A DNA stretch of 64,000 nucleotides from Schmidtea polychroa. Taxonomy: Eukaryota. The notes below the pieces were generated by a model. It was not told the DNA's origin, did no database searches, and saw nothing but the letters and a program-made list of their open reading frames with translations. The position numbers were made by a program, and so were the translations under genes. Below, one piece after another: positions 306 to 42,846 of the stretch (the stretch's first letter is position 1; the number at the start of each line of letters is the position of its first letter). The stretch is taken from NCBI GenBank assembly GCA_044892525.1, contig CM097885.1, positions 35,962,001 to 36,026,000 of the forward strand. Direction: 5' to 3'.

Positions 306-351
306 GAAATTCTAAATATTATGCTTTAAATATACACTCAAACTAAAATTT

Positions 352-2504: not shown

Positions 2505-2858
2505 TTCAGATATTATTAGTATGTATAATGATAGCCAAACTGGCGGTGAATTACCATATTTCGTTGGTAAACAGTACGGATCAGGTTGGTTAAAAACAAT
2601 AAGGAGATTTGCATTACTTATTCTTAAACGTATTGGTAGTTTTGGCATGAAAACTGCTAAAAACGTGATTATGAATGAACAGAAAATATTACCATCTCTA
2701 AAAACAAATGCTTTGGCTGAGTTAGGGAAGGTTCTACCTGGAGTTGCTGGTATGTTTCAAAAGATACGCTTTCAGCCCCAGCTCCAAAACGTAAAGGACA
2801 TGGAAAATCGCGTATAAATAAACGAATGAAAGGACATGGAACTATATTTGCTAAATGG
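2497..2858 (+). pseudogene. Core protein (QxGG/QYGSG family), frameshifted near the C-terminus
   Basis: Homologous to 36700-37071. Confidence 0.85.
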
Positions 2859-3171
2859 TTTGTGGTAAATCCGAATTATGTATATTTGATAGACCATCGC
2901 CTCAAGCGGTAATCGAATTTGGGGCCTTTGAGGAAGTTTTTCCTATGAATTCACTTACTGATAGTAGAAATGATATCGAGTTTATATTAATGGTTCGCAA
3001 ACTGAATATTTAGATTTGAACGATACTTTATTGACTGTTCAGATCAAGGTTGTAGATAAAGATAAAAAGGTTTTGGATGCCAATGCTGATGTATTGCCGA
3101 ACAATTTCATGTTTCATACTTTTTTTAAAGATGCAGTGTTGGGATTTAATAATATCAAGATTGAGGGTGAT

Positions 3172-3175
<4 letters not shown>
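2855..3175 (+). pseudogene. Major capsid protein N-terminal fragment
   Basis: MVCGKSELCIFDRPSPQAVIEFGAFEEVFPMNS matches the intact MCP; there is a frameshift and the gene is truncated at the (AAT)n tract. Confidence 0.9.
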
Positions 3176-3625
<450 letters not shown>

Positions 3626-3629
3626 ATAA

Positions 3630-6600: not shown

Positions 6601-6687
6601 TCATCAGAAGCTGTCTCAGCAAATGATCCAGATGATTTCCATGATCCAGCAGATGATAATTATTTTGGACATGATTATTTTCGATGA
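3630..6687 (+). pseudogene. Protein-primed DNA polymerase B pseudogene
   Basis: Fragments carry VRDHDHFTG, GIRGGLTFV, INNLYGWALS, KLLNNSL, YIGQTVLDLSK, GKFKD and DDKR, with many frameshifts, deletions and a local duplication near 4750-5060. Confidence 0.92.
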
Positions 6688-6901
6688 TGTGGTTAAATTA
6701 TTTAATAAATGTATTGATTTTATTGCCTTGCATATTTTTAGCAGTACCTTTGTGAACAATTTTTTACATGTATTTTTTTATACATTGTATATGTGTGTGT
6801 AATAATATGTTAAAGTTTTGCCTTGAATATTTTTAGCAGTACCTTTGTGAGCAGTACCCATAGGGGGACAGAATATCTTGTCGGATAAACTCGGAGTATA
6901 C

Positions 6902-11291
<4,390 letters not shown>

Positions 11292-17438: not shown

Positions 17439-18377
17439 TACAGATAGCAAAAGGGTTAATAAAACACATAATAATTGATCAAAGCCAAAAATGTTTCGAT
17501 TTCATCACTATTACTGATTTTTTTCAATTTCATTTACTTTTTTTTTACTTTTATCTGACAATTGATGAATAGTTTGTTTTATAAGTGGGATGAGTTTTCA
17601 GGATCGCTTGTTTTAAGTACTTAAAAGCACTTGAAAAAGGTAATCATCAAAATACTTTTTAAATGTAAAAGAATATTGGTCGATAGTTAAAACAGAAATA
17701 AAAATAAAATTGTCAATTTAATTTGTTGAATTTTATTTCGAATTTTGTAAATATATTTAACAATGATTGCATGGCAATACAATTCAATTATATTTTATAT
17801 GGTTGAAATTTTCCCAATTTATCTTTTGTATAGGTTTTTATGTGAGTGGAAACTTTACAAATAATTTTGTATCGTTCTTTTTGATTTATCAGTTTAAACA
17901 AATTTTTTACAAAATGATTTTTTTTCTAAATTTTCATATGGTAATTAATGAAATGTTGTGGACGCTGTTAAAAATCTTAAATTGTTCTTATTCTATACTA
18001 TAAGTTGTTTTAATCACCGATTTTTCTGCTAACGAATCAATAAAAATTTTCGACAAAAATTTTTTTTTAGAAATTGTAAAAATTTCCTCCATAACAAAAA
18101 ATTAGTGCCAATGCTTTGCAAAATTTTAATTTTAATTTAAATATTTATTTCAATTTCTAATAGTTTATGATGAAGACAGCAACATAGATAAGAATTAGTA
18201 ATGATTAAAATGTGAAGCATTTAAGTAAAATATTTTATAAATAAATGAAAAAATTTTACAATGAATCAAATCGCATTGTTAATTATTTTTTAATTTAATT
18301 AATTGGAAATTTTTATATTAGTTGAATAATCTTAATATTATTTATATTTCATTTTTAAATTAATTAATTGCTTACAG

Positions 18378-18479
18378 CATGTTAAACTCGCCGGAATATT
18401 TGCCACTAAAATTAACGAAAGTGAATTATTGGAAATAGTCCATCGGGTGGATTTTGGATTGGTCTGCTTTAAAATGAAG
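18378..18479 (+). CDS. Host PLP-dependent aromatic amino acid decarboxylase (DDC/TDC/HDC family), penultimate coding exon
   Basis: ttacag|HVKLAGIFATKINESELLEIVHRVDFGLVCFKMK|gt, phase 0/0; matches the family motif HV.LA..F......FEI......GLVCFRLK. Confidence 0.8.
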
Positions 18480-18504
18480 GTATAATCGGTTCTCTCTATA
18501 CATT

Positions 18505-18856
<352 letters not shown>

Positions 18857-19619
18857 TATAAAATTCAAATAAACTTTAATTGTTTTGTTTTTAACAGAAA
18901 TCCTGACTTATTTATTTTGACTTAGAGATGTTGTTTTCTTAATTTAATTGTTTCAAAGTTTGTAGAAGAGAAACTTGTATTAAAAGCATTGACACTAGTA
19001 GCTAGTTGCCAGTTGGTTGAAGTTAAAATTTGGAATCGAATTATTCAAAGAATAGTCAAAGAGAAGAGTAAAGTTAGAGTTAGTGAATCAAATCAATTAT
19101 AAGTAACAGAAAAGGCAGTTTTCTCTTAAAAAATATTTTCCGTATCTCTTTACTATATATTATAATTGTTCAAATGCATTATGAAAATGAGTTCTACTTT
19201 TGTTGATGAATATATTTATTTGCAACGTAATTTTTTAATGACTTTTCTGAAACTTTTGTTGACTTCATCAACATCCTCTTTATTCTTATTTCCAATTAAA
19301 TTGAAAAATAGATTCATAAACAATTTGACAGGATTTGAGAACTTGAATTTGATTTCTAAAAAACAATTAATTGTCTTTAAATGTTCAAATCGAAAAAATT
19401 CATGAAGCTACCAGTTGCAACCCAGATTCAAAATGGCAGAAGTTCCAGGACACTTCAATATAACTTTTTGATAGCTGATTGAATTTTCATAACAATTCCC
19501 ATCAGTATTTTTTAAAGGAAGAAAGTTGAAAATAAAGTATAAAGTTGAAAAACCTTTATCATAAATACACCATAACGTTAACATTTTAATTCTTTAAATG
19601 AAATGAATGAATTTTTTGC

Positions 19620-19719: not shown

Positions 19720-20175
19720 AGATTTTTACACATTATAGAAGATTATTAGAACGTTCAGGAATTTTATATCATTAATGTTCTTAAATGTGTTGACGAAAAT
19801 GAATCTATTTCCAAAAGCAACAGAAATTATAAATATATTTTGACATGTATTGATGTTTTCAGTATATTTGCTGATGCTATTCCCAGGCAAACAAAATTTG
19901 CTAAATAAATTTCAATATTTTCTGATTGTCGTTCAAATAATTTACATCGAAAATTGGAAAAAAAAATGTTTATATCATAAATATTTAATTCTAAATTTAG
20001 TTAAAAAATAATGCAGTGAAAATTTAATAAATCTTAAAGAAATAAAATAAAAAAAATTCTCTCAATTTATGTTGAGCAATTAAATTGTACATTATGAATA
20101 ATATTGTGCATCAATTGTAATAATATTATGGATAAATGTATTGCCAAAATTAATTCATAGTTACAATCATTCATT
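19720..20175 (+). pseudogene. Polinton-type integrase remnant in the decarboxylase intron
   Basis: SKSNRNYKYILTCIDVFSIFADAIP and WINVLPKLIHSYNHS resemble the intact integrase (NKYILTCINVYSRFARAIP; WVNALPKIITSYNHS). Confidence 0.7.
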
Positions 20176-24163: not shown

Positions 24164-25369
24164 TTTTTAAGTGTCTCTCCCATTTAAATCAAGAATTAGA
24201 ATTATTACAAAGCCGATTTTCCTATTTTGTTAAAATGCACGCAATTGTAAATATCTATCTCAAAATAAAACTTCCTGAATTGAGAAAAGTAATGTTTGAC
24301 TAAGAATTCCGATTTGTATAAACTTGTCATATTGGGGACGAATATCTTGAAAATTGTCTCACTTATACCGAGACATATAGAGAAAAGTATACAGATGTTA
24401 AATGTGCTGTGGGTTGTTGTTGATCGTTGGACAGATGAGAACGAATTTCTTTTAAAATATTGTTTAAATATTGTGCATTTATTTATTTATCGACATTTCT
24501 AACTAAATAAATTAAATTGATAGATGTCGTGAAAAGTTTTTGAACTTAAGAACTTAATTAATGGAACATTTCTTTAATCTGTCTCGTCTAATGTGGATTG
24601 CAGAAGCAGAAACCGATGCCTAATTAGTGGGAGGGGGTTAGTGAGTTTGGACCTTTTGTGAGTAATACATATCCAAATTTTTCTTTACATTTATTTACGA
24701 GTGACTCGAGTCAATCTAGAAAACTGTCACAATGTTTTACGTTTGAAGATTCACTGAGTTTGGTCATTTATGGTTGAAAAGATTTCGTCAATTTCAGTTC
24801 TTTTCCACTAATGTTTGTATTTTTTTTTAATTACATGCAAATTTTAATATTTTAGAAAATTATATCTATTTTTTTATTTATTACTATTATTATTATTAAT
24901 TTTAATTATATTTAATTTGTTTTAATAATATGATATAAAACATTATTTCAAAATTTAAATATTTCAGTAATTTTGTTTAATTGCACTAAAACTGTTCACA
25001 TTTAAATCAATACAAAAAATTGATTTTTATTAGTAATTATTTTATTTTGAAGACAATTATTGAACATGAAAAGTTTTATCAATTTCTTTTTTTTGATTCT
25101 TTTTATTATATAAACTATTAAATTAAATTGAATCGCTTTAATGAGACATGGAACATGGGTGAATAAATATAAATATTCTAGAATTTAAAATTATATAATT
25201 AAAACAATAAAATGTACTCATAAGAATAAGTACTTTTGTTTAAATTCGCCATATTACAATCCGTTGATATGTTATTTTTTGGTATTAAATCTGGAATTAT
25301 CTAGACATTCAAAACTCGTTTTAATTTAAATTCAAAATTTTACAAAACTTCTGTGTAAGTGAATGTTTA

Positions 25370-26408
25370 AGTAGATGGATTGGGCACCGCTGGCACAGGG
25401 CACCGCTAGCACAGTACCCCCCCCCCCGTCGGTAAGATTTTCAAAAATATTCTAAGTCTAAAAGTACATTTTTTTTTCAAGGTCAAATTTAAACAAAGAC
25501 ATATGACTCATCAAGGTCATTGAAACAAAGACCATGAGTCATCCTATGACTCATAAAATTTTTCAAGGTCATTTAAACAAAGACCATGACTCATCCGATG
25601 ACCCATCAAGGTCATTTTCAAGGTCATATGACTCATAATATGACTCATCAAGGTCAAAAAAAATTTCTCAAGGTCATTTAAACAAAGACCATGACTCATC
25701 AAGGTCATTTTCAAGGTCGTATGACTCATAGTATGACTCATTTGACCTTGAAAATTTTTTTTCAAGGTCATATGACTCATCCTATGACTCACCAAGGCCA
25801 TTGAAACAAAGACCATGACTCATAGTATGACTCATTTGACCTTGAAAAATTTTTTTCAAGGTCATATGACTCATCCTATGACTCATCAAGGTCATTGAAA
25901 CAAAGACCATGACTCATAGTATGACTCATTTGACCTTGAAAAATTTTTTTCAAAGTCATATGACTCATCCTATGACTCATCAAGGTCATTTTCAAGGTCA
26001 TATGACTCATAGTATGACTCATTCGACCTTGAAAAATTTTTCCCAAGGTCATATGACTCATCCTATGACTCATCAAGGTCATTCTCAAGGTCATATGACT
26101 CATCCGATGACTCATCAAAATTTTCAAGGTCATTTTCAAGGTCATCTGAGTCATCCTATGACTCATCAAGGTCATTTTCAAGGTCACGTGACTCATCCAA
26201 GGTCATTCCCAAGGTCATATGAGTCATCGCGATGACTCATCAAGGTCATATTATTATTTTTAAAAATATTATTATTTTTATTATTATTATTTTTAAAAAT
26301 ATTATTATTTTTAATTTTTTCAAAGTTCCCGCCAACGAAAATTAATAATCGATAGCTCATTTTAAAGCTCAATCCAAGACCTTTCGAATGAGCTATATAT
26401 CTTGTTAC

Positions 26409-26505
<97 letters not shown>

Positions 26506-26667
26506 CTATATACTCCGAGTCTATATACTCCTAGTCTATCCGACAAAATATTTTGTCCCCCTATGGGTAATGCTCACAAGGGTACTGGTCACGCTCAACA
26601 AATCAACAAAACATACATTTATTTAAACAATAAAATAATGTAAAATTAACAAAGGTAAACTAAATAT
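25370..26667 (+). repeat. Left TIR (~1.3 kb) with an internal TGACTCAT/TCAAGGTCA array and (ATT)n
   Basis: Reverse complement of 43926-45106 apart from repeat-unit copy number and a few substitutions. Confidence 0.95.
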
Positions 26668-27294
26668 ATATAGTATGATATTCATTAATCAGTGTTGAAC
26701 AGGCTTGACACTTGCGAACATTCTTCTCATGACACTTAGAACAAACAATTACGTGACCACACGGTAAATACAAAACCGAAACTCGATTTTCTTTACAAAT
26801 TGAACAAGTTAAATATCTTTTCTTAACATCTTTCAATTTTTTCGTTAGCTTATTTTCAATCAAATCGGCTTTCGCTATCCATTCATAAATCAATCTACTA
26901 TATCCCTGTTTCAACCTTAAAAACATACAACTCCAAAAGTATTCATTCAGTGAATCGTTGTTTACTGCTATTTTTTCTAAGTACATTAAATAACAAGATA
27001 ACTTTAAAATGGATTTCTCATAATTAAATAAATCAAACAAATATTCAATAGAGGAATGTTTGAAAATTTTTAAAATATTTATGAGTTGCTTATCACTGTA
27101 AGTATCATGATTATTTATAAAATCTTCAAGTGTATTGTTAAAAAATGTCAATGAAATTTCAGAATAGGCTGGACTTAATTTTTCCTTATTTCTAGTAGGA
27201 CTTCCTTGCTATAAATGACATATAAAAAAAATTGGCAAAATAATAAAGTTACCAAATGTGTTACACATTCATCGGTTTTATTTGTATAAATCAT
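26660..27294 (-). CDS. IAP/MDM2-type C3HC4 RING finger protein, putative E3 ligase; exons 27294-27253 and 27208-26660; ~196 aa
   Basis: CSICKENRVSVLYLPCGHVIVCSKC...KCQAC; a 44-nt GT-AG intron joins an upstream ATG exon in frame; CCAAT and TATA lie upstream. Confidence 0.85.
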
Positions 27295-27461
27295 TATTAA
27301 TAACTAAATTACTTTTGTTTTTACATTTATAAAAATTGTGATAACCAATCAAAATAGAGCTTTCAAAATGTAACCATCAAATGTATAACAATAATAAGCA
27401 TGACTAGTACCCTTTGCAACCTGTTTAAAGTTTTATTATTATTATTATTATTATTATTAAT

Positions 27462-27581
<120 letters not shown>

Positions 27582-27607
27582 ATTATTATTATTAATATTA
27601 TTTCATT

Positions 27608-27830
27608 GATATAGCTGCAGACTATATATAAAAATATAGCTGCATGCCCACTGCAGACTATATATAAAAATATAGCTGCATGCCCACTGCAGACTATATA
27701 TAAAAAATATAGCTGCATGCCCACTGCAGACTATATATAAAAAAAATATAGCTACATGCCCACTGCAGACTATATATAAAAAACATATAGCTGCATGCTC
27801 ACTGCAGACTATATATAAAAAACATATAAA
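27608..27830. repeat. ~33-bp tandem repeat (atagctgcatgcccactgcagactatatataaaaa)
   Basis: About 6 units, one of them partial; the core is shared with the 32.4-33.1 kb array. Confidence 0.9.
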
Positions 27831-28053
27831 AGTCACCATTAAATACTTATAAAATAAACTTAAAAATTATAATAAAACAAACTTAAAAATTCGAAAAATA
27901 TCTGATTACAAAATTTTATTGAATATATACAAATTTTAAATCAATATATTAATACAAGTTTTTATACATTTTTTTTTATAAATCAAAATAAAAAGTTTTT
28001 TTCAATATATACAAGTTTTTTGATCAAAAGTTTCTGTACAATTCTGAGTTGCC

Positions 28054-31000
28054 CTATTGATCTTCGTCCCATTCGCTGTCGTCAAAACTGGGACTTGGAG
28101 CTGCACTGAATTCCTCATCATATTCGCTTAATTCGTCAACTCCTAAATAATGCCCAAATGCGTAACTTAAGTTTTTTCCTAGCCACGCGCGCTTATCATC
28201 ATTATTACTTAGGGCAATTTTCGAATTTTTAAAAGTAAAAAGTTGGTGATTTCTAGTACCTATTCTAGTCTGCGGTACAGAAATCACCTGATTTGAATGA
28301 AAGCAATTTAGATATGATTCGTGATTTATTGATGTCCCTGGTAATTTAACCCCTTTCGCTTTTACCGTTTCCTTACTACCTAAAAGACTATAACATTTAG
28401 GGCGTAAGAAAACCCATTCAGAATACCCTAATCCCTTGCTCTCATCTTTAAACTTCCCGATGACCGAGTCAAGGTTCCTACTATACAAGGGGTGGGTTGG
28501 ATCGTAATTTGACGTATCCAATAAATTATCAGAGATCATCTGAGGTAATAAAGTTGTTAATTTTAAATTTTTTATTTCCAAAAAGAAACTGTCGGTATCA
28601 CCGGCAATAATATTTATGATACATTTATATTGGCGTCTGTACTTCTCCAAATCAATATATTGGAGCTGGTACATCCGCAGTTTAGACAGATCTAGTACTG
28701 TTTGACCAATGTAGCTAGGTCTGTCTAAACAAATCACATCTTTTTCCAAATGTGCCGCAATCAGATCTTGATCGATTCTTATGGACTTTCTGAAAGTCGG
28801 CTTTGAGGAGTATACTATCATCTTTTCGGATGAATTACACAACCTCAAATTCATTCTTTTTTTCAAATTTTCAACCGATTTACCGTAAAGAGAGTTATTA
28901 TACAATTTAAACAAGTCCCTATATATCTCGCTAGTAGACTGAGATCGTAAAGTGGTGTTGGTGTCTATGTAGGATTTAAAGATAGGTCCTTGTTTAAACT
29001 TTATACACCTATGAATATTTACAACAACCGCACCTAATTCTATATACAATTTGAGAAGCCTCCAATGAAGAACATAGTTCCTCTTTGGCCAATGCGTAAG
29101 CATAAGCTTCTCAACTTTTGAATTAGGCGGGCACAACTTTTCCGGCGCAAGCGGAAAATCATTCAAAAAGTCATGCACACATTCCGGAATATCGATATCG
29201 ACCTCCATAGTATACCCATATGGAAGGTTATCAATATCCGTGTTCATACATTCAAGTAAAACATCATTCAAGTTATTATTCACCCAAGAAAAATCACCAT
29301 ACGGAAGATTTTGGCTAAGAGCCCAACCATACAGATTATTTATATCAATGTACAATAATTCTGTATCATCTGAAGTAGCCGTGTAATGTTTGTTAACAAA
29401 TGTTAACCCACCCCGGATACCTCCCTCATAGAAATTATACATTTCCATGTCCTGCAGAAGTTCTATTGGTTCCGTTAATGTCATAAGCGCTGAGGCCCAT
29501 GACATACCGGGAATCCCGTAGAAATTAAGAGGATCCAGACCATTGTAAGCAATTGCCTTACCGCGGAATTGCTGAAAATAATCTGCGAGGAGGTATACGT
29601 CCAATTTTAGGTAGATTAACATATAATCTAACAAATTATTACAGTTATGCTGACTCCAAATTAGTTGAGCCTCAGCGTACTGATCTTCCGTAACATCAGA
29701 CCAAATAGGAGGTAATTCTAAAGTCGATTCAAGAACATCTAAAGAAGTAGCGAAATTATATGGAAAGATACCTTTAGAGTGAATCATCGACCCTTGAAAG
29801 ACAGACGAAGTCAAAGGAAAAGTAGTTAAGGTTTTCACAGCTTTTGCTAAAGAACAATTAACAAATTGCATGCTGTCAATAAAACGAACAGGCAATTTGT
29901 TAATATATGCAATTAAAGATATAAATTTTTCTGTAGAGGTAGGTATAATATTAAGTTCCCAAAGGGGAAAATCACTGAGACCATGTTTTAAAATATGGTG
30001 GAGGTCATAGCCTCGTAAATTATGAAAGACAACAGGTAACAATTTATTAATCCTGCGAGAGACATTGCATTTCCTACATGCCGCTCCGACATATCTACCT
30101 GTAAAATGGCAATGATCTCTCACAGGATTAATAATAGATTTTTTACACAAATAACAAATAGTGGAAGATCGAAAGGCACGCTCCTGAGCAAAAGACAAAG
30201 TAGACATACCTTTACGACCTTCAAGATCATAATATGGCAGGACAATTGTGACAGCAATTTCCTCCACTTTCCTCAAAAAATCCAAAATACAATTAGGTCC
30301 AAAAAAATAATAATAAAATTTAGTGTGTGTATAATTATTAATTAATAAAAGACCTGCTGATATGGGTAAATGTATTTGATGATATGTTTCATGTTCTGGT
30401 AAAACCGATTCAAAATCGGCATAAATTACGAAGGGAGGTGTAACTGTTTTTGCGTAATCTGTGAATAATAAATCTTTATTTTTAGGAAGTGTATACAAAG
30501 TTGTGCCAGTCTGATTTTTACAGCATAGAGCAACATGCTGATCGAAAGCATTCTTATATCTAAAGCCATTTAAACAATGTGGGCACCAGTTACACCTTAT
30601 TTGAACATTTACATTTTCATTTTCATGACAATTCATTAATTTGTCCAAGTCTGTCACGGCTGTATAATGATATTTATCTTTATTACTCAAAAGTAATAAA
30701 TAAATTGGTCTACCGTCTATAACCTTGGAGCGATGTACTATATTAAGATGAGGGTGGTGAGCTACATAATCCTCAGAAATATCTAAATCAGAACTGGCTG
30801 GATTATAAGACAGAACGTTTATGCTCAAGTTTAAATCTCTATTTTTTCTTTCAAATTTGGGAATGTTGCATAGCCTCATCGGGCAATCAGTGTCTTCGTC
30901 ATAATTTAATAGAGGTAAAAATTCTATATATTTGGCGGCTCTTTGGTGATTACGACCTATTTCTTCTCTTTTTAAAAGTGCAAGAATGCTATACAAGAAG

Positions 31001-32357
31001 CACTTATGGTCGTTGTTTTTAACGTTAATTATTGCATGTTTTAATTTTAAAGCCGATGGGGTTTTTATATAGCTATGTCCGGATAATCTACTAACGGGTG
31101 CGTATTTCGTTAAAATAAAATCTATTTCTAAAATATTCACTACTCGCCACCCGCTTCCTAAATAGGTGAATTGCTCAATCTTTTCATTTAATTTGCTCAC
31201 CCCCTCGTTTATAAAGTTTGATGTAAAAACTTGAGCATTGTTTGAAAAATAATTATCCCGGATCTCCCCATCTTTTTCAAATTTAATTAAAATTGTGAAT
31301 TGTATTTTTACATTGCCCATCTTTTCTATTTCCTCTATTAATCTATCTTCAATTTTTGATGTTAGGGCTATTTTAACCAGGTTTTCATTTCTTATATTAA
31401 ATTTTAATGTTTTACGTGATCCATTCAAATCGGATTCAACAACTGGTTCAAACAAAGAGCCGCCTATTTGAAATATGTTGAAAGACGTTGAAGCTACACA
31501 TTCATCATTGATGACTATCACTTCTTGTTGTGTAATGGGTGATTGTTGTGTAATGGGTGCTTGTTGTGTAAACGATGTTGAAGCTACACATTCATCTTTG
31601 CTGATGACTATCACTTCAGGTCGCGATAATTTATTAGGAATGCAATTTTTAATTAAACCAGCAGGTCTTTTAATAGAATCTTTTTTAATATTTATAATAT
31701 CTTTTTTAATAATATTTATAGTATCTTTTTTAATAGCATCTTTTTTAATAGAATCTGTTTTTTCTTTTATAATATTTTTTTTAATATTTTTTAAATCTTT
31801 TTTAATATCTATTTTTATATCTTTTTTAATAGTATTTTTTGGTAAATTTTTTTGTAATTTTTTATTTATTTTTTTAAATAAAACATTTTTTGATATCGAA
31901 AATTGCCCTAAGTGACAATGATGTTTATTAAAAAATTCCCTATATTTTACTTTTTCGCTCGTTACACATTTGGGGCATATAAAAAAGTTGAGCGAATTAA
32001 ACGTCTTTTTGTAGTATTTTCTCATTGTGCGATGACATTTATCGCTATGTCCATTTGCAGCTTGGCAATAATTTGGGTATAGTTTACCTGTTAAATAATA
32101 AAATTAAAGTTTTATTTTTTTTTCTAATTGTTATTAATTGTTACATCTATAAGGATTTATCATCATTTGTTATTTAATTCAAATGAACTATATAACAAAT
32201 GATGATAAATCCTTATAGAAAATAGGTTAATATATTCGAGAGAATATTAGAGAGATTTTAGTAGATAGGTCAGATTATTATATGAATATGTTAAATATTA
32301 GAGAGATTTTAGTAGATAGGTCAGATTATTATATGAATATTAGACGAGTCAGATTAA

Positions 32358-32410
<53 letters not shown>

Positions 32411-33118
32411 TGAAGAGAAGTAGCTGCATGCCCACTGCAGACTACTATGTAGCTACATGCTTACTGTAGACTACATTATTATTATTAATATTATTATTAT
32501 TATTATATTGAAGAGAAGTAGCTGCATGCCCACTGCAGACTACTATGTAGCTACATGCTTACTGTAGACTACATTATTATTATTAATATTATTAATATTA
32601 TTATTATTATTATATTGAAGAGAAGTAGCTGCATGCCCACTGCAGACTACTATGTAGCTACATGCTTACTGTAGACTACATTATTATTATTAATATTATT
32701 ATTATTATTATATTGAAGAGAAGTAGCTGCATGCCCACTGCAGACTACTATGTAGCTACATGCTTACTGTAGACTACATTATTATTATTAATATTATTAA
32801 TATTATTATTATTATATTGAAGAGAAGTAGCTGCATGCCCACTGCAGACTACTATGTAGCTACATGCTTACTGTAGACTACATTATTATTATTAATATTA
32901 TTAATATTATTATTATTATTATATTGAAGAGAAGTAGCTGCATGCCCACTGCAGACTACTATGTAGCTACATGCTTACTGTAGACTACATTATTATTATT
33001 AATATTATTAATATTATTATTATTATTATATTGAAGAGAAGTAGCTGCATGCCCACTGCAGACTACTATGTAGCTACATGCTTACTGTAGACTACATTAT
33101 TATTATTAATATTATTAA

Positions 33119-33188
<70 letters not shown>

Positions 33189-34608
33189 TTAACTATTGTA
33201 GATGCACATTGCAAACTACAAGGATTTATTTTATAACTATAATTTTGTAATCACTTTTTTAAATACTTTGATTATATTTCAAAAAACATAGTATTTTCTT
33301 CATAATTTTCGTCATATTTTCATCATAATTTTGGTCATATTTTCATCATAATTTTGGTCATAATTTTGGTCATAAATCATTTTCATTTTGTTCATAAATT
33401 TTCGTCATAATTTGGGCATAAATCATCATAATTTGGGCATAAATCATTTTCTTCATAATTTGGGCATAAATCATCATAATTTGGGCATAAATCATCATAA
33501 TTTGGGCATAAATCATCATAATTTGGGCATAAATCATAAATCATCATAATTTGGGCATAAATCATTTTCTTCATAATTTGGGCATAAATCATCATAATTT
33601 GGGCATAAATCATCATAATTTGAGCATAAATTCATAATTCATTTTCTTCATAAGTTTGATCATAAGGTTCATCAAAATATTTAAGAAATTTTCATCAAAA
33701 ATTAAAGAAATTTTCATCAAAATATTTAAAAAAAAAGTGATTACGAAATTTAAATATCAAAAATATATATAAAATAAATAAATCTTACATTCTGATTCCA
33801 TATCGGAATCTGAGTCTTCAGCAACCGAACTGAGGGTATTATCATCAATTGTTACATTTTCCATAAAATCTTCATCGATGGAATCCGAGTCTTCAGCAAC
33901 CGAACTGAGGGCATTATCATCAATTGTTACATTTTCCATAATTTCTTCTTCATCGATGTCGACATTGAAATTAAACGCTAAAAAATAAAATTTTTAAAAA
34001 TAAATTACTAAAGTAAATAAATTTACTTTTTTCTTTGATAACCTTGGTTTGCCCAACATCAATAACTGGGGCATCCGATTGTCCAAGAAAAATAATATCT
34101 TCATCACTATTTTCATTAACATTTTCTGTAATGCAAATTAATTTAATAAAAATTAAAATAAATTTACTTTTTTCTTTGAAAACATAGTTGTGCCCAACAT
34201 CATTAACTGGGGCATCCGATTGTCCAAGAAAAATAATATCTTCATCACTATTTTCATTAACATTTTCTGTAATGCAAATTAATTTAATAAAAATTAAAAT
34301 AAATTTACTTTTTTCTTTGAAAACATAGTTGTGCCCAACATCATTAACTGGGGCATCCGATTGTCCAAGAAAAATAATATCTTCATCACTATTTTCATTA
34401 ACATTTTCTGTAATGCAAATTAATTTAATAAAAATTAAAATATTAAATTTACCAAATATATTTTCCACATTTAAAATGGCATCGTTTTCTGTAACTTCGT
34501 ACCAGTCGAATGGTTCTAAAATAAAATATAATAAAAATCGAATAAAAATAATAATAATTTACCGTTAGTCAAAAGACTTCTCAATACTCGATTCTTGTTG
34601 GTTTCCAT
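28054..34608 (-). CDS. Protein-primed DNA polymerase B polyprotein. Main exon 32087-28054; predicted upstream exons 34608-34563, 34515-34453, 34407-34309, 34266-34168, 34125-34027 and 33977-33789; ~1540 aa
   Basis: Exonuclease motifs YADFES and FHNLRGYD; polymerase motifs DINNLYG, KLYNNSLYGK and GDTDS; OTU-like NDHKCF..HY; endonuclease VII-like CYLC..VRDHCH..CRKCN. All six predicted introns are GT-AG and phase 1. The main ORF is secure; the leader exons are predicted. Confidence 0.9.
32405..33190. repeat. Seven ~100-bp tandem units with a constant GC-richer core and variable ATT spacers
   Basis: tattgaagagaagtagctgcatgcccactgcagactactatgtagctacatgcttactgtagactac repeated 7 times. Confidence 0.95.
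33295..33655. repeat. 21-bp tandem repeat (tcatcataatttgggcataaa)
   Basis: Seen directly in the sequence. Confidence 0.9.
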
Positions 34609-34949
34609 TGATTTCAAATAGATTTTCGAATTGATTTTCAAAATTTCAAAATAATTGTGACAAATTTTAGATTTGTCAATGTTTATAAAGAGAATGAATA
34701 TTTTCCTGTCCCAGCCAATGAGAATATAGACACACACACATATACATTGAATATTTTACTCTCTCAACCAATCACACGCATGCATGTATGTAATGTAAAT
34801 CAGTCAGAATTACATGTGACTGCCTTTGTTAGTCATGCCTTTGTTAACTTGCACTGTGCATGCCTCAGGCAAAGGCAGTCTTTATGTTACAAATAATAAT
34901 ATTTATTAGAATAATAATAAAATTAATTAAAAATAATAATATTTTTCAC

Positions 34950-34992
<43 letters not shown>

Positions 34993-35069
34993 TTAATAAT
35001 ATTAATAATAACACAACAACAAAGGAAAGGATACATTTATTAAACATCAAATTTATTAAACATTTTTCT

Positions 35070-35482
35070 TTAAACATCAAATTTTTTGTACAATAACCAA
35101 GCTAAACAATGTTGACCGCATGTTTGGGTCAAAGGATTTTGAAACATAGTTTTATTATACACAATAGGTTTTCCCATTGTTTGTAGTTTTGATATCAACA
35201 AAGCTGGGTAATAGAAACCCATCGGATCGAACACGAATATATTACCAGGTTTCACATATATAGCTATCCAATGTTCTCCACCAAGATGAGACGATTGAGT
35301 ATTGACGATTATTGCTTGATTATTGCTCAAATATGGAATTTTATCAAGAGGAAAAACTCCAACAAATTCATTTCCCAATATCTGTTTTCCGATTTTATTG
35401 ACCTGAACAGAACTATTTAAATAAATCCAGAGTATAAAAAAACAACTTACTCCATGATAACTTTTTGTGTTTCTGTATACAT
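35070..35482 (-). CDS. Adenain-like cysteine protease; 38-nt intron at 35413-35450
   Basis: GVFPLD, IVNT......GEHWIA, FDPMG and Q......CGQHC. The spliced N-terminus reads (MYTETQKVI)MDSVQVNKIGKQILG. Confidence 0.92.
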
Positions 35483-36703
35483 TTATACCAACACGGTTCT
35501 ATTTGCAGTAATTTGAACTTCATTTTCAAATACTCCATATATTATAACATGTACTGGTTCAGTAATAGCTTTGGCAAACTTTATATCCAGTCGTAAATTC
35601 CCGTTTTGTGGTAATTGACTTTGATTTAAATCAAAATCAGGGGCTAAAACAAATGTAAAAAATGGGTATTTGCTTTTAAAATCTTCTAGTGTTATTCCGC
35701 AATTCAAATTTTTATCTAAATAACCCAGATTTCTAACAATACTCTGCATATATGTCGCACAGTAATTGTCATTCTCGAAATCTTGAATATATGTTTCTCT
35801 ATAATCAGTATTTTTCGACAAAGTCAATGATGTAACACCAAAGTTTTTGAAAATTGAGCTGGACGCAGTATATGATCCATTATATTGTGCTTCACTTTGA
35901 AATGTTATCAGAATAAAATTAGGCATTCTTCTGTCACCAAATATTTGTTCTTTATAGAATGATGAAGCACCTTTAGCAATAGCAAATTGTACAATTTCCT
36001 TTGTTTTTAAGGGATAAATTGCATGTTTTGAATTAAGACCCAATTGATGACCAGCTAATACAGAGGGGTCTACTCGAACTCTTCTCACCAATAATTTTGC
36101 ATCAACTAATTGACATATTGGTGCAGTAGTTGCACTAGTAAGAGATAATGCAGAATCAGACCTTTTCAATCTAATATGTACATTAACTCCCGGTAGTAAA
36201 TATTTCGGTTGATCCATAAAATCAAGTTGTAATGATGAGCACATGGTGAAAACCTTTGAGCCTTTTACCCACTTTTTTCTTTCATCATCACTGCCATAAC
36301 CCATAGGAGTAAGACATGTATTTTTAGTATCGGAATTGTAATTTAAAATAGTTTCTATTAATGCCTTGTGAATGAATGTATTATTTCCGCCCTCAATCTT
36401 GATATTATTAAATCCCAACACTACATCTTTAAAAAGAGTATGAAACAGGAAATTGTTCGGTATTACATCTGCATTGGCATCCAAAACTTTTCTATCTTTA
36501 TCTACAACCTTAATCTGAACAGTCAATAAAGTATCGTTCAAATCTAAATATTCGGTTTGTGAACCGTTAATATAAAACTCGATATCATTTCTACTATCTG
36601 TAATTGAATTCATAGGAAAAACTTCCTCAAATGCCCCAAATTCTATTACAGCCTGGGGCGATGGTCTATCAAATATACATAATTCAGATTTACCACAAAT
36701 CAT
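35483..36703 (-). CDS. Double jelly-roll major capsid protein
   Basis: 406 aa with Polinton MCP motifs KSELCIF..P, IEF.I.G...YLDL..T.L, NNFLFHTLF, Q.KYLLPGV and GNLRLDIKF. Confidence 0.93.
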   Translation of the reverse strand: MICGKSELCIFDRPSPQAVIEFGAFEEVFPMNSITDSRNDIEFYINGSQTEYLDLNDTLLTVQIKVVDKDRKVLDANADVIPNNFLFHTLFKDVVLGFNNIKIEGGNNTFIHKALIETILNYNSDTKNTCLTPMGYGSDDERKKWVKGSKVFTMCSSLQLDFMDQPKYLLPGVNVHIRLKRSDSALSLTSATTAPICQLVDAKLLVRRVRVDPSVLAGHQLGLNSKHAIYPLKTKEIVQFAIAKGASSFYKEQIFGDRRMPNFILITFQSEAQYNGSYTASSSIFKNFGVTSLTLSKNTDYRETYIQDFENDNYCATYMQSIVRNLGYLDKNLNCGITLEDFKSKYPFFTFVLAPDFDLNQSQLPQNGNLRLDIKFAKAITEPVHVIIYGVFENEVQITANRTVLV

Positions 36704-37071
36704 TTTGCAAATATAGTTCCATGTCCTTTCATTCGTTTGTTTATACGTGATATTCCATGTCTTTTACGTTTTGGAGCATGAGCTGGAGCTGGTGCTGGAG
36801 CTGGTTTTTGAAACATACCTGCAACCCCGGGTAAAACTTTCCCTAATTCTGCTAAAGCATTTGTTTTTAGAGATGGTAATATTTTCTGTTCATTCATAAT
36901 AACATCTTTTGCAGTTTTCATACCAAAACTACCGATACGTTTAAGAATAGGCAATGCAAATCTACCTATTGTTCTCAACCATCCTGATCCGTACTGTTTA
37001 CCAATAAAATATGGTAAATCACCACCAGATTGGCTACCACTATACATACTAATAATATCAGAATTTGCCAT
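36700..37071 (-). CDS. Virion core or membrane-active protein with protease cleavage motifs
   Basis: QSGG and QYGSG followed by the amphipathic WLRTIGRFALPILKRIG and a basic C-terminus; typical position between penton and MCP. Confidence 0.8.
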   Translation of the reverse strand: MANSDIISMYSGSQSGGDLPYFIGKQYGSGWLRTIGRFALPILKRIGSFGMKTAKDVIMNEQKILPSLKTNALAELGKVLPGVAGMFQKPAPAPAPAHAPKRKRHGISRINKRMKGHGTIFAK

Positions 37072-38131
37072 CTACTTTACGAAAATGTAATGTCAAATGA
37101 GTTTTTGAACCTTTTGGAAAGTTTATAAGTTTTCCACTATCATCACGAATATTTATTTCTATATTGTTTATACATGAACTTGCTATTGGTAAATACATGG
37201 GATTATCGATATTTATATTGACAACTTCATCATGTTCATATTTGCCAATCCATACCGATTTCAAAAGAGGAACACTGGAATCACCAACAATTATGGGTTC
37301 GATAATGTTAGTATATATGAACATTTGTTGATGATGTTCTAGTATTCTTGGTTTGCGTATACCAGTCGATTTTTCTCGATATTTTTGCTTATCTAATCCA
37401 AGTGAATTTGCCAAATTTTTATCAAATGTAACTTCGCAAATATCATCATTCAAACTGAAGGTAAACATCAAATCTTTCACAATTTCCAAATTTTTAAATA
37501 TGTGTGAACAATTGAACTTTAAATATTTAAGTAAATCATCAAGTTTATCAAAATATAATTCATCAGCAAAGGTAAATGATTCTTCAACTTTATCATTATA
37601 CGACACAGATATTTTGATTTCTTCTTTCATTACACTGTTTGCTTCAAATAGATTAAAACGTAATAAATACTCGGTCTCCGTAACAATATTTTTCAACTTA
37701 TTGCAACCCATTCGTTTGGCATCTTCAATAGTTTCGAATGTTATTGTAAATGGTTTAAAATCACAACTGATATTTAATCCATCCTTGTAAAACATATAGC
37801 AATGCGAATCTAATATTTGATTCGGAATATGATATGTTTTATCATAATTACTGATAACAAAGATACCGCTACATGTTTTCACAATATTCCTTTTGAAATC
37901 AATCTTACATTGACTATAAAATGGGAATGTGTTGTACACGAATGTAAAATCTTGCAGTGCAACTTCCCAATCCCCATTTAAAGAAATCGGATTCTGAAGA
38001 TTGACCATGAATTTACTGGCTTGATTGTCTGGATGAATTAATGGACAACTATTGCTCGGCAAAATAGTATAAAAATTCACTTTACTAGGTCTTTTGCTGA
38101 TATCCATGACGGGTTTTGATAACCATGCCAT
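37058..38131 (-). CDS. Minor capsid protein (penton)
   Basis: FY.ILPSNS....PDN..S.F.V.L..PI.L.G.WEVAL at the N-terminus and IVGD..VPLL...IEINIRD..G..I.F....LTLHFR at the C-terminus. Confidence 0.92.
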   Translation of the reverse strand: MAWLSKPVMDISKRPSKVNFYTILPSNSCPLIHPDNQASKFMVNLQNPISLNGDWEVALQDFTFVYNTFPFYSQCKIDFKRNIVKTCSGIFVISNYDKTYHIPNQILDSHCYMFYKDGLNISCDFKPFTITFETIEDAKRMGCNKLKNIVTETEYLLRFNLFEANSVMKEEIKISVSYNDKVEESFTFADELYFDKLDDLLKYLKFNCSHIFKNLEIVKDLMFTFSLNDDICEVTFDKNLANSLGLDKQKYREKSTGIRKPRILEHHQQMFIYTNIIEPIIVGDSSVPLLKSVWIGKYEHDEVVNINIDNPMYLPIASSCINNIEINIRDDSGKLINFPKGSKTHLTLHFRKVDGKF

Positions 38132-38706
38132 TTGACATAGTATTGTTTATCCTTACCGACCTTTTTAGTTTTCAATATTTTTTGAATTCTAAATACTTTT
38201 GGGGGAGGAATGACTTGTAATTCCTGCTCATAAAATTTCCCCTGTACAATATTATTATCATTGTCTTTGATGACATACATTACAGGATGCTGTTTAGTAT
38301 TTATTTTTGAAATTACAAAGACTTCATCACTCCAATTTGTATCAAAATTTTTAATAAATGGTGATGCACTAATTTTACTAATTCTAACATGGTCACCGAC
38401 TTTATATTTAGGTTTTGCAATTTTTACAGATTTTTTAGATAATGATGTTTTTGATGTAATATCAACCGGTCTCAATCCATTCAGTCCTCGATGTGATGAA
38501 TGATTATAACTTGTTATTATTTTCGGTAAAGCATTTACCCATTTTTTATTACCTTGATGCACGAACAATTTCTTTAATCGATCTCTCAATGTTCGATTAA
38601 ATCTTTCAACATGGGCAGCTTTGTATTGAGAATGTACCGAGTAGTGATTTATTTTCAGTTTATCGAGGATTTGCTTAACTTTGCTATTGTAGAATTCTTT
38701 ACCTAA

Positions 38707-38783
<77 letters not shown>

Positions 38784-39171
38784 CTAAATCTGTTTGCAAA
38801 TTATTAGGATGTCCATCTTTAAATAAAATATTAATTGCCTTGGACATTTCTTCTGCAGATTTTGCCTTGACTGGTATTGCTCGTGCAAACCTGCTGTATA
38901 CATTAATACATGTTAAAATATATTTATTCCCATTGTTAATTTTCGAATATGGTATCATCTCCATCAAATCCATTTGCCATAAATCGTCAATACCAAATGT
39001 TTTATACGCTCTTGTTGGAAATCTTTTCCGCATTGGTTTGTTCAAACTGTACGCAAGCTGATCTGATAACCACTTCTGGGTTTCTTTTTTCGAATTCGGA
39101 ACTCTTTTGTTTAATTTTGCCACTCCACCGAAACCGGCTTCGTCTTCTGGGTTCGTCCAAATCTTCTCCAT
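38077..39171 (-). CDS. Retroviral-like DDE integrase with C-terminal chromodomain; 81-nt intron at 38703-38783
   Basis: WQMDL, QTDLG|KEF, VERFNRTL, YKVGDHVRIS and the chromodomain YYVKWHGY..PSWI. Confidence 0.95.
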
Positions 39172-39229
39172 TACAACAAGAAGATTTAAAATTAAATTTA
39201 ATGTCGGGCAATGAAGGATTAGCACCCAT
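39002..39229 (-). CDS. Overprinted small ORF with N-myristoylation consensus and a CC motif
   Basis: MGANPS (G2, S6), FKSSCC and basic RRRSR; its ATG sits 3 nt after the stop of the upstream gene. Confidence 0.55.
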   Translation of the reverse strand: MGANPSLPDIKFNFKSSCCNGEDLDEPRRRSRFRWSGKIKQKSSEFEKRNPEVVIRSACVQFEQTNAEKISNKSV

Positions 39230-39232
39230 TGT

Positions 39233-39766
39233 TTATGATTGATTTCCTACAACTCCACCTAATAATGATAATGCCAGAGGTATCAAGGCACCAATAAATC
39301 CACCTTGTTGTTTATATATAATTTTCCTCATTTGCTTACGATTTTTATTATTTACTAAAGATAATAAAGGTTTCCTATGTTTGCTCAATAAATGCTTTTT
39401 TGATTTACTGATTTTAATTTTGCCTTTGACTACTTTAAGTATAATATTGAGTAAATCATCGACAACAAAATTTGGGAATGATTGCAATATATTCATTCTT
39501 TTCATACTCGGAGCCTTTAACAATGCATTAAAAAATGGAAAACTGCGATGATTTTTAACTACTTTTTTACCGGTTTTACGGGTTTTACGGGTTTTACGTT
39601 TAGGTTTAGGATTTTTCGAAATAAGATTCATTGCAGAGAAATTTTCAGTTACAAGTTTTTTAGATGGTGTATAACTAGTTGTTGGTGGAACTTTTGGAAC
39701 TTTAATAGTCTTTCTAATACCTTTTCTTAATTTCCTAATATTTTTCACCCTTGCTTTTAGAAACAT
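39233..39766 (-). CDS. Highly basic core protein with C-terminal QQGG and hydrophobic peptide
   Basis: K/R-rich; ends KQQGGFIGALIPLALSLLGGVVG, typical of Polinton core or membrane-lytic precursors. Confidence 0.8.
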   Translation of the reverse strand: MFLKARVKNIRKLRKGIRKTIKVPKVPPTTSYTPSKKLVTENFSAMNLISKNPKPKRKTRKTRKTGKKVVKNHRSFPFFNALLKAPSMKRMNILQSFPNFVVDDLLNIILKVVKGKIKISKSKKHLLSKHRKPLLSLVNNKNRKQMRKIIYKQQGGFIGALIPLALSLLGGVVGNQS

Positions 39767-39784
39767 TATTATTCATAGAGGTTT

Positions 39785-40411
39785 TCAACTTTGTTTATAA
39801 ACCATGGCACCTTTTGGGTTGAAAATATCTGTTTTTACACGTAAATCATCGGGACATTGTTGTGTGAAATCAAGAAATATATATCCATGAGGTATTTTTG
39901 TAGCATCTTGAAATGCACTGATAAGAAAATTACGATTGTTAGGGTATGCTTGACGTGCAAGAAAATCAATCACTGTTGCATCTCTAGGATTCTTGAAAAT
40001 GACTAAATACTGTACATTTAAATTACGTGTTCGATGTGCCCCACCTTGATGAAATAGATTTTGAGTTATGAAAATAACTGTTACACCGACATGTCTGCTG
40101 ATCTTTGTAAATAAATTATTAAAATCTTTTTCTTTATTAGCTTCTTGATACAAATCATCGATAATAATGACATCACCTTTCTTTAATCGGCTGGACCAGT
40201 TTTTATCGAATCCCTTTACTATTTTCATGTTTTTTAATTTACAGAAACTTGATTGAGTTAATCCATGTTCTTCATCAGCACCCCTATGCCAATAAATCCT
40301 GTTGAATTTTGATTTGAATAAATTTGATTTTAGTAATTTACAAACAAATAATGTTTTTCCACTACCACTCGGACCAACGATTTGGTATACTGCATCATTT
40401 CTTAATTCCAT
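39785..40411 (-). CDS. A32/FtsK-like DNA packaging ATPase
   Basis: Walker A GPSGSGKT, Walker B IIIDD, SRH, FITQNLF, LVIFKNPRD and HGYIFLD. Confidence 0.96.
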   Translation of the reverse strand: MELRNDAVYQIVGPSGSGKTLFVCKLLKSNLFKSKFNRIYWHRGADEEHGLTQSSFCKLKNMKIVKGFDKNWSSRLKKGDVIIIDDLYQEANKEKDFNNLFTKISRHVGVTVIFITQNLFHQGGAHRTRNLNVQYLVIFKNPRDATVIDFLARQAYPNNRNFLISAFQDATKIPHGYIFLDFTQQCPDDLRVKTDIFNPKGAMVYKQS

Positions 40412-40510
40412 TTCAAAAATTTTATATATGTATATTTGTTTATATTCGATGATTTAATGAACTCATGCTCAATTTGTATATAAAGACTAATTTTCATAAA
40501 TGATTTAATA

Positions 40511-40948
40511 ATGTTAGCAAATATAAATTATCGAGGAAATTTTGATGTATCGAATATGAGGTTCCCACCTGGGAAACCCCAGCAAATTATCGATAGAAGC
40601 GGGAAATATCCGATAATATTTTTCAAGACTGGTAAATGTCGAATCATGGGATGTAAGAAACCTTTGGATATTAATAAATTACAATATCGAATAAATAATA
40701 TTAAAATCCAATCAATTACCGTTACTATGGATATGGGACATAGTATCAATCTATATAACATGTCGAAAAAATGTGATTGTATGTTTGAACCAGAATTGTT
40801 TCCGGCACTAAGACTAATAAAATATAACCCTATATGTGTCAATGTGTTTGCTAGTGGAAAGGTTGTCATGTTGGGGTTGAGAAATTTGGAGTATAGAGAA
40901 TTTGTTGACAATGTTCGAAATGAGATAATTTCATTGGTCGATTTTTAA
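40511..40948 (+). CDS. TATA-binding-protein-like protein (divergent, 145 aa)
   Basis: IKIQSI...INL...FEPELFPAL...VNVFASGKVVMLG aligns to TBP repeat 2 (YEPELFPGL...IFVSGKVVLTG); IIFFKTGKCRIMG aligns to repeat 1. Confidence 0.85.
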   Translation: MLANINYRGNFDVSNMRFPPGKPQQIIDRSGKYPIIFFKTGKCRIMGCKKPLDINKLQYRINNIKIQSITVTMDMGHSINLYNMSKKCDCMFEPELFPALRLIKYNPICVNVFASGKVVMLGLRNLEYREFVDNVRNEIISLVDF

Positions 40949-41019
40949 TTGGTTAATTTCTAATTGGTTATTGATTGATTTAAACAAACGGTTTTTTGTT
41001 TAGAATTCATTTTTTCACT

Positions 41020-41437
41020 ATGTACAAAATACCAAGCTCTGCAACCCTCATGAAGGATATTGACGATTCCGGTAAATTTAAAATTTTTATTTTCACATTA
41101 TTTACTATTTATTATTTTAGAAAAATATATCAAAGTTATGATCAACAGGATAAAATATTATTATCCGCAAATCAATGAAATTATCAAGGATAGAGAAGCA
41201 GAAATAATTCCAGACCTCATTTTCTACACAACACAAATTAGAATAATGGAGGTATTTCACCAGTTCTTGTGGGATCTTAAGATAAACAGAAGCATCAAAC
41301 AAATGGAGCCAGAGTACCAGTGCATCATCGGATGCTCATGCTGTGCCGATCGATATCGGCGATATGTCGAATGGGAGTTAGTGAAAACTCTGCGAAGGTT
41401 TCACTACTCCCGGATTGTAGATCTTGGATATGAATAA
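41020..41437 (+). CDS. Unknown accessory protein with a CxxGCSCC motif; 49-nt intron at 41072-41120
   Basis: Splicing joins two short ORFs in frame; a homologue exists at 1470-1871; AATAAA overlaps the stop. Confidence 0.75.
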
Positions 41438-41855
41438 ATGTATTTTTGTATCTGTTGTGTTTTTTATATTTGAAATAGTAATAAATAATAGTAATAATAA
41501 TAATATTAATAATAATAATAGTAATAATAGAAATAATAATAGTAATAATAGAAATATGAATAGTAATAATAATAGAAATAATAGTAAAAAAAAACATTAA
41601 TAATAATAATGAAACACCTTATTAATAAATCTGTAAATAGAACATATAACAAAACATGTAATAATTAAAACATTAATAATAAAACACATAAATAATAAAT
41701 CTGTAAATAGAACATATAACAAAACATGTGACAATGCAACATCAATGCATTTTGAATGCAATTTTAAACAAAGACATGCTGTAATCTGATTGGTTGATAG
41801 ACATGAGTCAAAGGTATAAAAACCCTGTAACATTTCAATTTATTCATTATTCACG

Positions 41856-42266
41856 ATGACCAAGAAAATTTCAAGCACCGAAAAACCAAAAGAAATGGTA
41901 CAACCAGTTCAAATGTTCCACAACTACAAAATGTATTTTTTGAAAGAAGAAATCAATATGAAATTGGTTGCACCAGTCAAGCTAATTCCAACTAAATTCG
42001 AATTCTTATCCGGCACGCTTTCAATGATTGATGTCAAAACTATTGATGATGTTTTTAAACGGATAGATTCGAATCTATCGTGTAATCAACATGCATGGTT
42101 CAACAATAGATATGCAAGATTTTATGATGCTTTTGATGAAATCAGTTTCAAAGAAAATGAAAATTGGTATATAACAATAGCAATCCAGGGATATAAAGTT
42201 GATAATAATGATGTATATTCTCCTATTTGGAAAATTATGTCTGCTAGACTTTCACAAATATTTTAA
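41856..42266 (+). CDS. Unknown accessory protein (possible OB-fold ssDNA-binding protein)
   Basis: Conserved between the two elements; CCAAT/AP-1/TATA promoter upstream; beta-rich C-terminal pattern. The function is speculative. Confidence 0.75.
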   Translation: MTKKISSTEKPKEMVQPVQMFHNYKMYFLKEEINMKLVAPVKLIPTKFEFLSGTLSMIDVKTIDDVFKRIDSNLSCNQHAWFNNRYARFYDAFDEISFKENENWYITIAIQGYKVDNNDVYSPIWKIMSARLSQIF

Positions 42267-42392
42267 TGTTATATTTAATAAATGTATTAGTCAGATTTGT
42301 TTTTCTCTTTATTAATTGCAACATAAATGCAAATGACATGCAAATTTAACAAAGAAAATCTATAAACAAAATTATAATATAGTTTTAAAGTG

Positions 42393-42778
42393 ATGAAAAT
42401 GACTGCAGAAAAAGGTTAACATGATTAATTAATTACCGAATTATTTATTATTTAGAATTTTTAATCAACTTTTTGTTGGAAAAGTTAGCAGAAATATCTG
42501 GTGTGAAAATGGAGGATATATTATCTATTACAAATGCCTTAAATATCGGCTGGTTAGTTGAGAGTCAAGATACAGGATTTGATGATGAGGAAGAAACTCA
42601 AGAAATTGATGAGGAAGAAACACAAGAGGAAATGTATGAACCTATAGAGGAACCTATAGAGGAACCTATAGAGGAACCTAAAGATGAATCTAAAGATAAT
42701 ATTACGAATGATTGTATTGATCATGTCGTTGAAAATATAATGAAATGTGGAGATGACGACTGCGAATGTGTTAATTAA
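42393..42778 (+). CDS. Acidic small protein with Cys-rich C-terminus; 41-nt intron at 42415-42455
   Basis: The intron is conserved with the copy at 352-709; EEPI repeats; C-terminal CIDH...KCGDDDCECVN. Confidence 0.75.
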
Positions 42779-42846
42779 TAAATCTTAGTGTTTGTAAATT
42801 TATTTAAAATTTTATTTAAAAATCAAACAAAATAACTATATAAATT

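Follow-up and report, generated by a model that had tools for sequence, protein, structure and literature searches.

The 64-kb window (the whole stretch of DNA analysed here, from assembly GCA_044892525.1) contains a full-length Polinton/Maverick at positions 25370..45106. Its ends read AGTAG...CTACT, and both flanks carry a perfect 6-bp target duplication, TGTTTA (25364-25369 and 45107-45112). The left terminal inverted repeat (TIR) occupies 25370..26671 and its partner lies at ~43926-45106; over 1208 aligned bases they differ by 16 mismatches, and their internal repeats differ in length. The TIRs are near-identical, and the element looks intact and recently inserted. It was assigned to Polintons by its long TIRs starting with AG and 6-bp target duplication, pPolB and rve integrase, and A32 ATPase and C5 protease. 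The TIRs consist mostly of repeats (25470-26250 and 44317-45005) rich in TGACCTTG and TGACTCA motifs, the latter presumably AP-1-like. A RING-finger gene (26660-26986, minus strand) overlaps the inner edge of the left TIR.

On the minus strand, the region 28054..32025 matches at the DNA level a decayed copy whose ORFs match PF03175. The pPolB gene is flanked by tandem arrays at 32368-33136 (~107 bp) and 27615-27826 (~39 bp), which have a common CTGCATGCCCACTGCAGACTA motif and interspersed ATT runs. The adenovirus-type protease was assigned by Peptidase_C5 (PF00770). A 406-aa ORF at 35483..36703 (minus strand), which is conserved in relatives, is taken to be the major capsid gene from gene order, and a 357-aa ORF at 37058..38131 (minus strand) is presumed to encode the minor capsid protein; both are without a Pfam match. 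The packaging ATPase (Pox_A32; 39785..40411, minus strand) and a TBP-like ORF (40511..40948, plus strand) were identified by Pfam. A 75-aa ORF with a Met-Gly start (39229-39002, minus strand) overlaps the start of the integrase gene in another frame; it has no Pfam match and is conserved in many relatives.

Other mobile elements are found in the same window. A related family is represented at positions 1-7000 by another Polinton, which is decayed and shows 87% identity at the DNA level over 2121-3178. In this copy, the putative capsid gene ends abruptly in an AAT array of 418 nt (3190-3607), and frameshifted pieces of pPolB follow at ~3800-6600. A near-perfect foldback at 7074-11288, with 1986-nt arms that are 100% complementary and a 58-nt loop, encodes a Penelope-like RT with GIY-YIG and is bounded by AAT arrays. 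A decayed fragment of another Polinton-type integrase lies at 19771-19971 on the plus strand.

The integrase gene of the full-length element lies on the minus strand and consists of two parts separated by an 81-nt segment. The upstream part, putative exon 1 (38784..39171), covers the rve core up to the second catalytic Asp, and the downstream part, putative exon 2 (38077..38702), contains the region of the catalytic Glu and a chromo-like C-terminal domain. The Pfam matches of the two parts (PF00665, E 1.1e-5, and PF00385, E 3e-4) both fall short of the curated cut-offs; the homologues do carry PF00665. The integrase also matches that of PFV, and in this weak match (2x6n, E 0.094) residues D68, D128 and E189 align with the DDE triad. 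According to the same alignment, the insert begins two residues past the second catalytic Asp, in a Gly codon. The ORF (39171..38077) runs through the segment uninterrupted and encodes 364 aa, including a run of 26 Ile.

The segment, read on the minus strand from 38783 to 38703, is GTATTATT...ATTTTAG and contains 98% A+T. A perfect AAT array of 25.3 units with 100% matches (38707-38782) fills it. The 8-mer TTTAGGTA is present at both junctions, on the donor side at plus-strand positions 38781-38788 and on the acceptor side at 38700-38707. A GT donor, an AG acceptor and a pyrimidine-rich 3' end are all present, which makes the segment a candidate phase-1 spliceosomal intron of the form GTATT...TTTTAG. 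The earlier note had described just such a GT-(ATT)n-TTTTAG unit of 81 nt, in frame, stop-free, with an 8-bp repeat at its junctions and placed beside the second Asp, and this anatomy was confirmed by the sequence. Two of these features carry little weight. The (ATT)n repeat contains no stop in any of the three sense-strand frames, the sole stop of the segment being the terminal TAG in frame 0, and this stop-free state is no more than chance would give. An in-frame length is a one-in-three chance, and any length change by whole units leaves the frame intact.

The segment is absent from 120/120 of the full-length homologues listed. These have 13 residues where the window's ORF has 40, and the boundaries of the resulting 27-residue gap coincide with those of the segment. 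In the same 120 listed homologues, residue 90 (38902-38904, minus strand) corresponds to an invariant column from which the window's integrase deviates. This position is not a DDE residue, and both sibling fragments described below carry the same state, so a lesion specific to this copy was rejected in favour of a family trait. The AlphaFold model of a natural homologue (P0002) had a pLDDT of 55, which was too poor for use.

A wider comparison covered 255 distinct proteins that reach the junction; of these, 243 go on to the usual x-E-F, and the other 12 depart from it. Among the proteins at least 70% identical to the window's integrase, all five exceptions break at this codon: P0254 and P0166 (99%), P0172 (75%), and P0173 and P0175 (74%). 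The 99% sibling P0254 leaves the integrase frame right after the Gly and enters an Ile-rich tail of 17 residues. The other, P0166, comes from a 1778-nt ENA contig and jumps from the 5' junction to the last 14 residues of the integrase; judged from the sequence, it is apparently an internal deletion with short microhomology and not a GT-AG event. Neither of the two siblings whose fragments extend as far as the junction reads across it (0/2). A full-length uninterrupted sibling was found in none of the protein searches, where the best match was 76% identical outside the insert; sibling ATPase and ORF177 proteins are present in the searched collection as clusters of 5 and 12.

In the second lineage, P0172 and P0347 are 94% identical, come from JGI and Logan sources, and both end four residues past the Gly, and P0173 ends one residue past it. 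The residues that follow the Gly in the broken relatives (I, K, N) are all encoded by codons beginning with A. If the Gly codon were GGT, these junctions could read GTA and would be compatible with a donor; the breaks in the relatives are known from proteins, and GT and AG ends there are deduced from the protein tails. Two C-terminal halves, P0169 and P0171, were found on contigs of the same sizes as those of P0172 and P0173 (3759 and 1550). Of the N-anchored relatives with at least 60% identity that end before residue 300, 6/23 end at residues 128-131. In the group under 60% identity, 18/204 truncated relatives end there, partly since the query ended there. Eight distant integrases of ~35% identity (P0367, P0368, P0375, P0380, P0391, P0398, P0413 and P0434) lose homology at residues 128-131 and continue with unrelated sequence; they are possibly further introns, or splices made by gene predictors, at the same proto-splice site. 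Two proteins with an uninterrupted sister each and no informative tail, P0175 and P0200, were not counted as support; both are probable contig ends or errors.

Phylogenetic analysis placed P0172, P0347 and P0173 in a supported clade (98/96). With the N-terminal halves, a tree with one origin of these breaks and that of the window's family gave an AU p of 0.47. The best tree of the C-terminal halves joins the interrupted rows with low support (58/73). A single origin of the break in both lineages is thus neither shown nor rejected by the trees. All JGI loci that hold the motif are uninterrupted (32/32), including those with the protease intron described below. Scanning of GTDB gave five loci, namely L038 and L039, which are uninterrupted, the broken L040, and two remote matches. 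In L040 (1-1009), an N-terminal half of the integrase in a bacterial MAG breaks just past the codon of the second Asp into foreign DNA. An LTR insertion at the same site was considered and rejected, since the foreign part matches a DDB1-type beta-propeller and the locus looks chimeric; it is probably a chimera and points to contamination of the MAG with eukaryotic DNA. Polinton contigs are present in L038 and L039 as well. Scans of IMG/VR with the integrase, the 406-aa ORF, the alignment and the junction pattern as queries revealed no relatives (0/110 loci match), and the additional proteins from a search of 50% representatives were all distant. The earlier note had pointed to presence or absence in related Polinton integrases: the segment is missing from every full-length homologue listed, and breaks at the same codon, which may reflect the same intron, occur in the siblings and in the lineage of P0172, P0347 and P0173.

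Additional introns were found within the element. The protease gene contains a 38-nt intron, GTAAGT...AG, at 35413..35450 on the minus strand, after the first five coding bases. An intron at the same position is present in L005, L009 and L012, and its donor side is also seen at the end of L017; L024 is without it. As all 32 motif-holding JGI loci have an uninterrupted integrase, carriers of the protease intron included, the integrase intron would be younger than that of the protease. Seven short GT-AG candidates in accessory genes were chosen by eye. One of 49 nt (GTAAAT...TTTTAG; 41072..41120, plus strand) is consistent with the frame of a small Polinton gene, and one of 41 nt (GTTAAC...TTTAG; 42415..42455, plus strand) lies in a small acidic gene. 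The other five belong to a multi-exon gene at 33978..34562 on the minus strand (34562-34516, 34452-34408, 34308-34267, 34167-34126 and 34026-33978). This accessory gene contains duplicated exon-intron units: three tandem copies of 141 bp at 34015-34442, each with an exon and an intron, represent an exon-intron duplication within the element. In L009, a candidate intron starts with GTATTT and is ATT-rich. A host intron of 418 nt, also chosen by eye (18480-18897, plus strand), starts with GTATA and holds head-to-head (AAT)n and (ATT)n arrays. The exon that precedes it (exon and intron together at 18330-18897, plus strand) is presumably amino-acid decarboxylase-like. The short GT-AG introns of the element and the repeat-filled intron of the host show that an AT-rich intron in the integrase gene would fit both the element and the genome.

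The integrase coding sequence was also compared among family copies in four sequencing runs. Twelve of the 16 best-supported variants were synonymous (25% expected, p 4e-5), with 5/8 in exon 1 and 7/8 in exon 2, as counted from the 40 variants listed, with 292 more outside the list. This data suggests that both exons are under purifying selection and that the gene behaves as a functional one, although the bias could stem from uninterrupted copies among the contigs. The stretch is present in 20/24 of the listed sequencing-run rows, none of those 20 recorded as RNA. No spliced read or contig turned up in the four-run contig comparison, which skipped letters at the repeat, and zero depth at this place is no finding. 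In run X11, one contig starts 39 letters to the left of 38793, where 39-40 is expected from the repeat-bearing form and 12 or 34 from the joined form, on the assumption of k=31. This offset suggests that the repeat exists outside the GCA_044892525.1 assembly. X11 is RNA by guess and may be DNA: if RNA, its offset counts against efficient splicing, and if DNA, it says little on splicing.

The origin of the segment was considered together with that of the 8-bp repeat. The earlier note had suggested that an AG|GT proto-splice site was duplicated and the repeat then expanded. The AG|GT context is indeed available, as it occurs at 4/25 distinct junctions of uninterrupted relatives, and a duplication is possible. 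The 8-bp repeat, however, is not diagnostic of it: AG|GT is already present in uninterrupted relatives, and 4/13 comparison introns start with GTA and end with TTTAG, which yields the same repeat without any duplication. A remnant of a duplicated exon was not found inside the segment. According to the available text of a review, repeat frequencies are similar at old and new Drosophila introns (PMC3443670), and in Daphnia the repair of staggered breaks is described as leaving repeats of 4-12 bp at new insertions (PMC4202315). Duplication, staggered-break repair and plain gain at a proto-splice site are all possible and compatible with the segment. The host DNA is AT-rich, and AAT arrays are abundant in the window, with 14 merged arrays of at least 8 units; direct repeats of more than 5 bp flank only that of the integrase. 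As the other 13 have flanking repeats of at most 5 bp, a general mechanism by which microsatellites arrive with target duplication was rejected. Another GT-(ATT)n-AG unit together with a matching repeat, as would be expected of an introner, was not found among the 14 arrays.

In our judgement, the segment is probably a real, lineage-restricted phase-1 spliceosomal (GT-AG) intron whose interior has turned into a microsatellite. The same-codon breaks in related Polintons, the other introns of the element, with that of the protease shared, and the selection on both exons point in this direction, and they lend support to the intron proposed by the earlier note. The intron would have arisen once the lineage had separated from most of its relatives, at an AG|GT proto-splice site within the Gly codon that follows the second catalytic Asp. 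Its AT-rich interior would later have been overrun by (ATT)n, a microsatellite common in this genome, and the host spliceosome would remove it to give an integrase of normal length. What we infer here is splicing itself, the identity of the intron with the break in the 75%-identical lineage, and the secondary nature of the pure repeat. Several observations speak against an intron. The GTATT donor belongs to a rare class (1/13 comparison introns), and the branch-point consensus has no clear match in the pure ATT interior, where its core alone is found. In P0254, the tail resembles a pure repeat less than one would expect of a 99% sibling, and it may come from a mis-join. The motif-holding JGI loci, all 32 of them uninterrupted, also count against an intron. 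The codon may simply attract breaks or mis-predictions, as the 18/204 in the distant group may indicate.

A reading which we consider unlikely is that of an inactivating insertion that is not spliced at all. A microsatellite would have entered a fragile spot at a staggered double-strand break and created the 8-bp duplication; uninterrupted copies would have mobilised the element in trans, and each relative would owe its break to an independent accident. The flanking repeat, unique among the 14 arrays, falls within the size range given for break repair in Daphnia in the available text of PMC4202315, the deleted sibling P0166 and L040, which looks chimeric, are both broken here or close by, and the offset of the X11 contig fits retention. 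Independent accidents would nevertheless have to explain why this codon is also the point of breakage, with starts compatible with a donor, in a second lineage known from two sources. Moreover, the protein searches found no uninterrupted sibling, and introns are in use elsewhere in the element. The deviation at residue 90 from a column invariant in all 120 listed homologues could be taken for a sign of decay; its presence in both sibling fragments marks it as a family trait, and it lies outside the DDE residues. An error of assembly or sequencing that glued a repeat into the gene is highly improbable. Microsatellites do cause mis-joins, and no listed contig spans the site, where repeat letters were skipped; yet the independent assembly of the sibling P0254 likewise departs from the frame at this place, into sequence that begins Ile-rich, the junctions have precise GT and AG ends, and the X11 offset fits repeat letters beside the donor.

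It is also conceivable, though we have serious doubts about it, that the intron is a regulated one. Weak splicing, set by tissue, piRNA or repeat length, would then decide between an active integrase and a dead or repressor product, as in the case of P-element IVS3 (available text of PMC7776569). The donor is of the rare class, and a better donor match lies at the start of exon 2. Retention at a position in the catalytic core would certainly inactivate the enzyme, and planarian Polintons are targets of piRNA, according to the part of PMC8532177 that could be accessed. The same appearance would be expected of any intron in a core gene, however, and several sister introns lie in genes without obvious switch logic. 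The 27-residue, mostly Ile insert which the earlier note expected on retention did not stand up to comparison: the (ATT)n repeat is stop-free in any sense frame, and read-through in the relatives ends within 1-17 residues, so the poly-Ile product would be an accident of the copy at 39171..38077 and not a conserved isoform. The integration switch proposed with it finds no support in these results. Fainter still seems to us a wider form of it, in which the Polinton lineage would control integration by means of a minimal intron, made of splice ends and (ATT)n, beside the catalytic Asp, the spliced fraction of which is tuned by repeat length or host factors. If this were true, the element could choose between integration and staying episomal or viral.

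A lineage-restricted spliceosomal intron, the reading which we prefer, would mean that a virus-like element has been caught in the course of gaining introns, with an older, widely shared intron in the protease gene and a younger one, restricted to a sub-lineage, in the integrase gene. In the databases searched, this integrase lineage was found only as broken halves and would be scored as dead or missed. If spliced, GT-(ATT)25-TTTTAG would be a natural minimal intron, and it would test how little information the spliceosome needs.

The element resembles animal Polintons/Mavericks of the adintovirus type in its TIRs, 6-bp target duplication, pPolB, rve integrase with a chromo-like domain, A32 ATPase, C5 protease and capsid-sized ORFs (available text of PMC8097293). 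As stated there, intact vertebrate Mavericks are intron-free, in agreement with Kapitonov and Jurka 2006 (Barreat and Katzourakis 2021, PMC8097293). An intron in a core gene of a class described in this way is unusual, and the present element differs from those Mavericks by candidate GT-AG introns in its integrase, protease and accessory genes. A survey of protists called genes with prokaryotic tools on the assumption that endogenous viruses are intron-free, according to its available text (PMC10120064). The accessible parts of PMC8502044, PMC10748475, PMC12220804 and PMC6431247 contain nothing on spliceosomal introns in Polinton genes. In the open literature, we found neither an animal Polinton integrase described as carrying spliceosomal introns nor a microsatellite-only intron; subscription papers, Repbase or supplements may describe one.

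The available text on four known systems allows a closer comparison. The transposase intron IVS3 of the P element is similar in that its retention would abolish activity; regulated retention has been proven there, and in the integrase it is hypothetical (PMC7776569). Introns gained at AGGT proto-splice sites, whether by tandem duplication, insertion or double-strand-break repair, likewise sit at AG|GT and are bordered on each side by a short direct repeat (PMC3443670; PMC4202315), but the integrase segment has no duplicated exon remnant and its repeat is expected from consensus ends in ~1/3 of cases. Ginger1 elements also have Gypsy-like DDE integrase/transposase genes, which contain 1-4 introns, mostly GT-AG and in part conserved in position; they differ in being simple cut-and-paste elements without polymerase or capsid genes, and a microsatellite-only intron is not reported in the part of the paper that was available (PMC2836005). 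The Maverick-Polinton-like proviruses of dinoflagellates carry introners, which are mobile copies in a protist, whereas the segment described here has no recognisable transposon body and resides in an animal-type genome. What the two share is the presence of spliceosomal introns, candidate ones in our case, inside full-length Polinton-like elements (PMC11957031).
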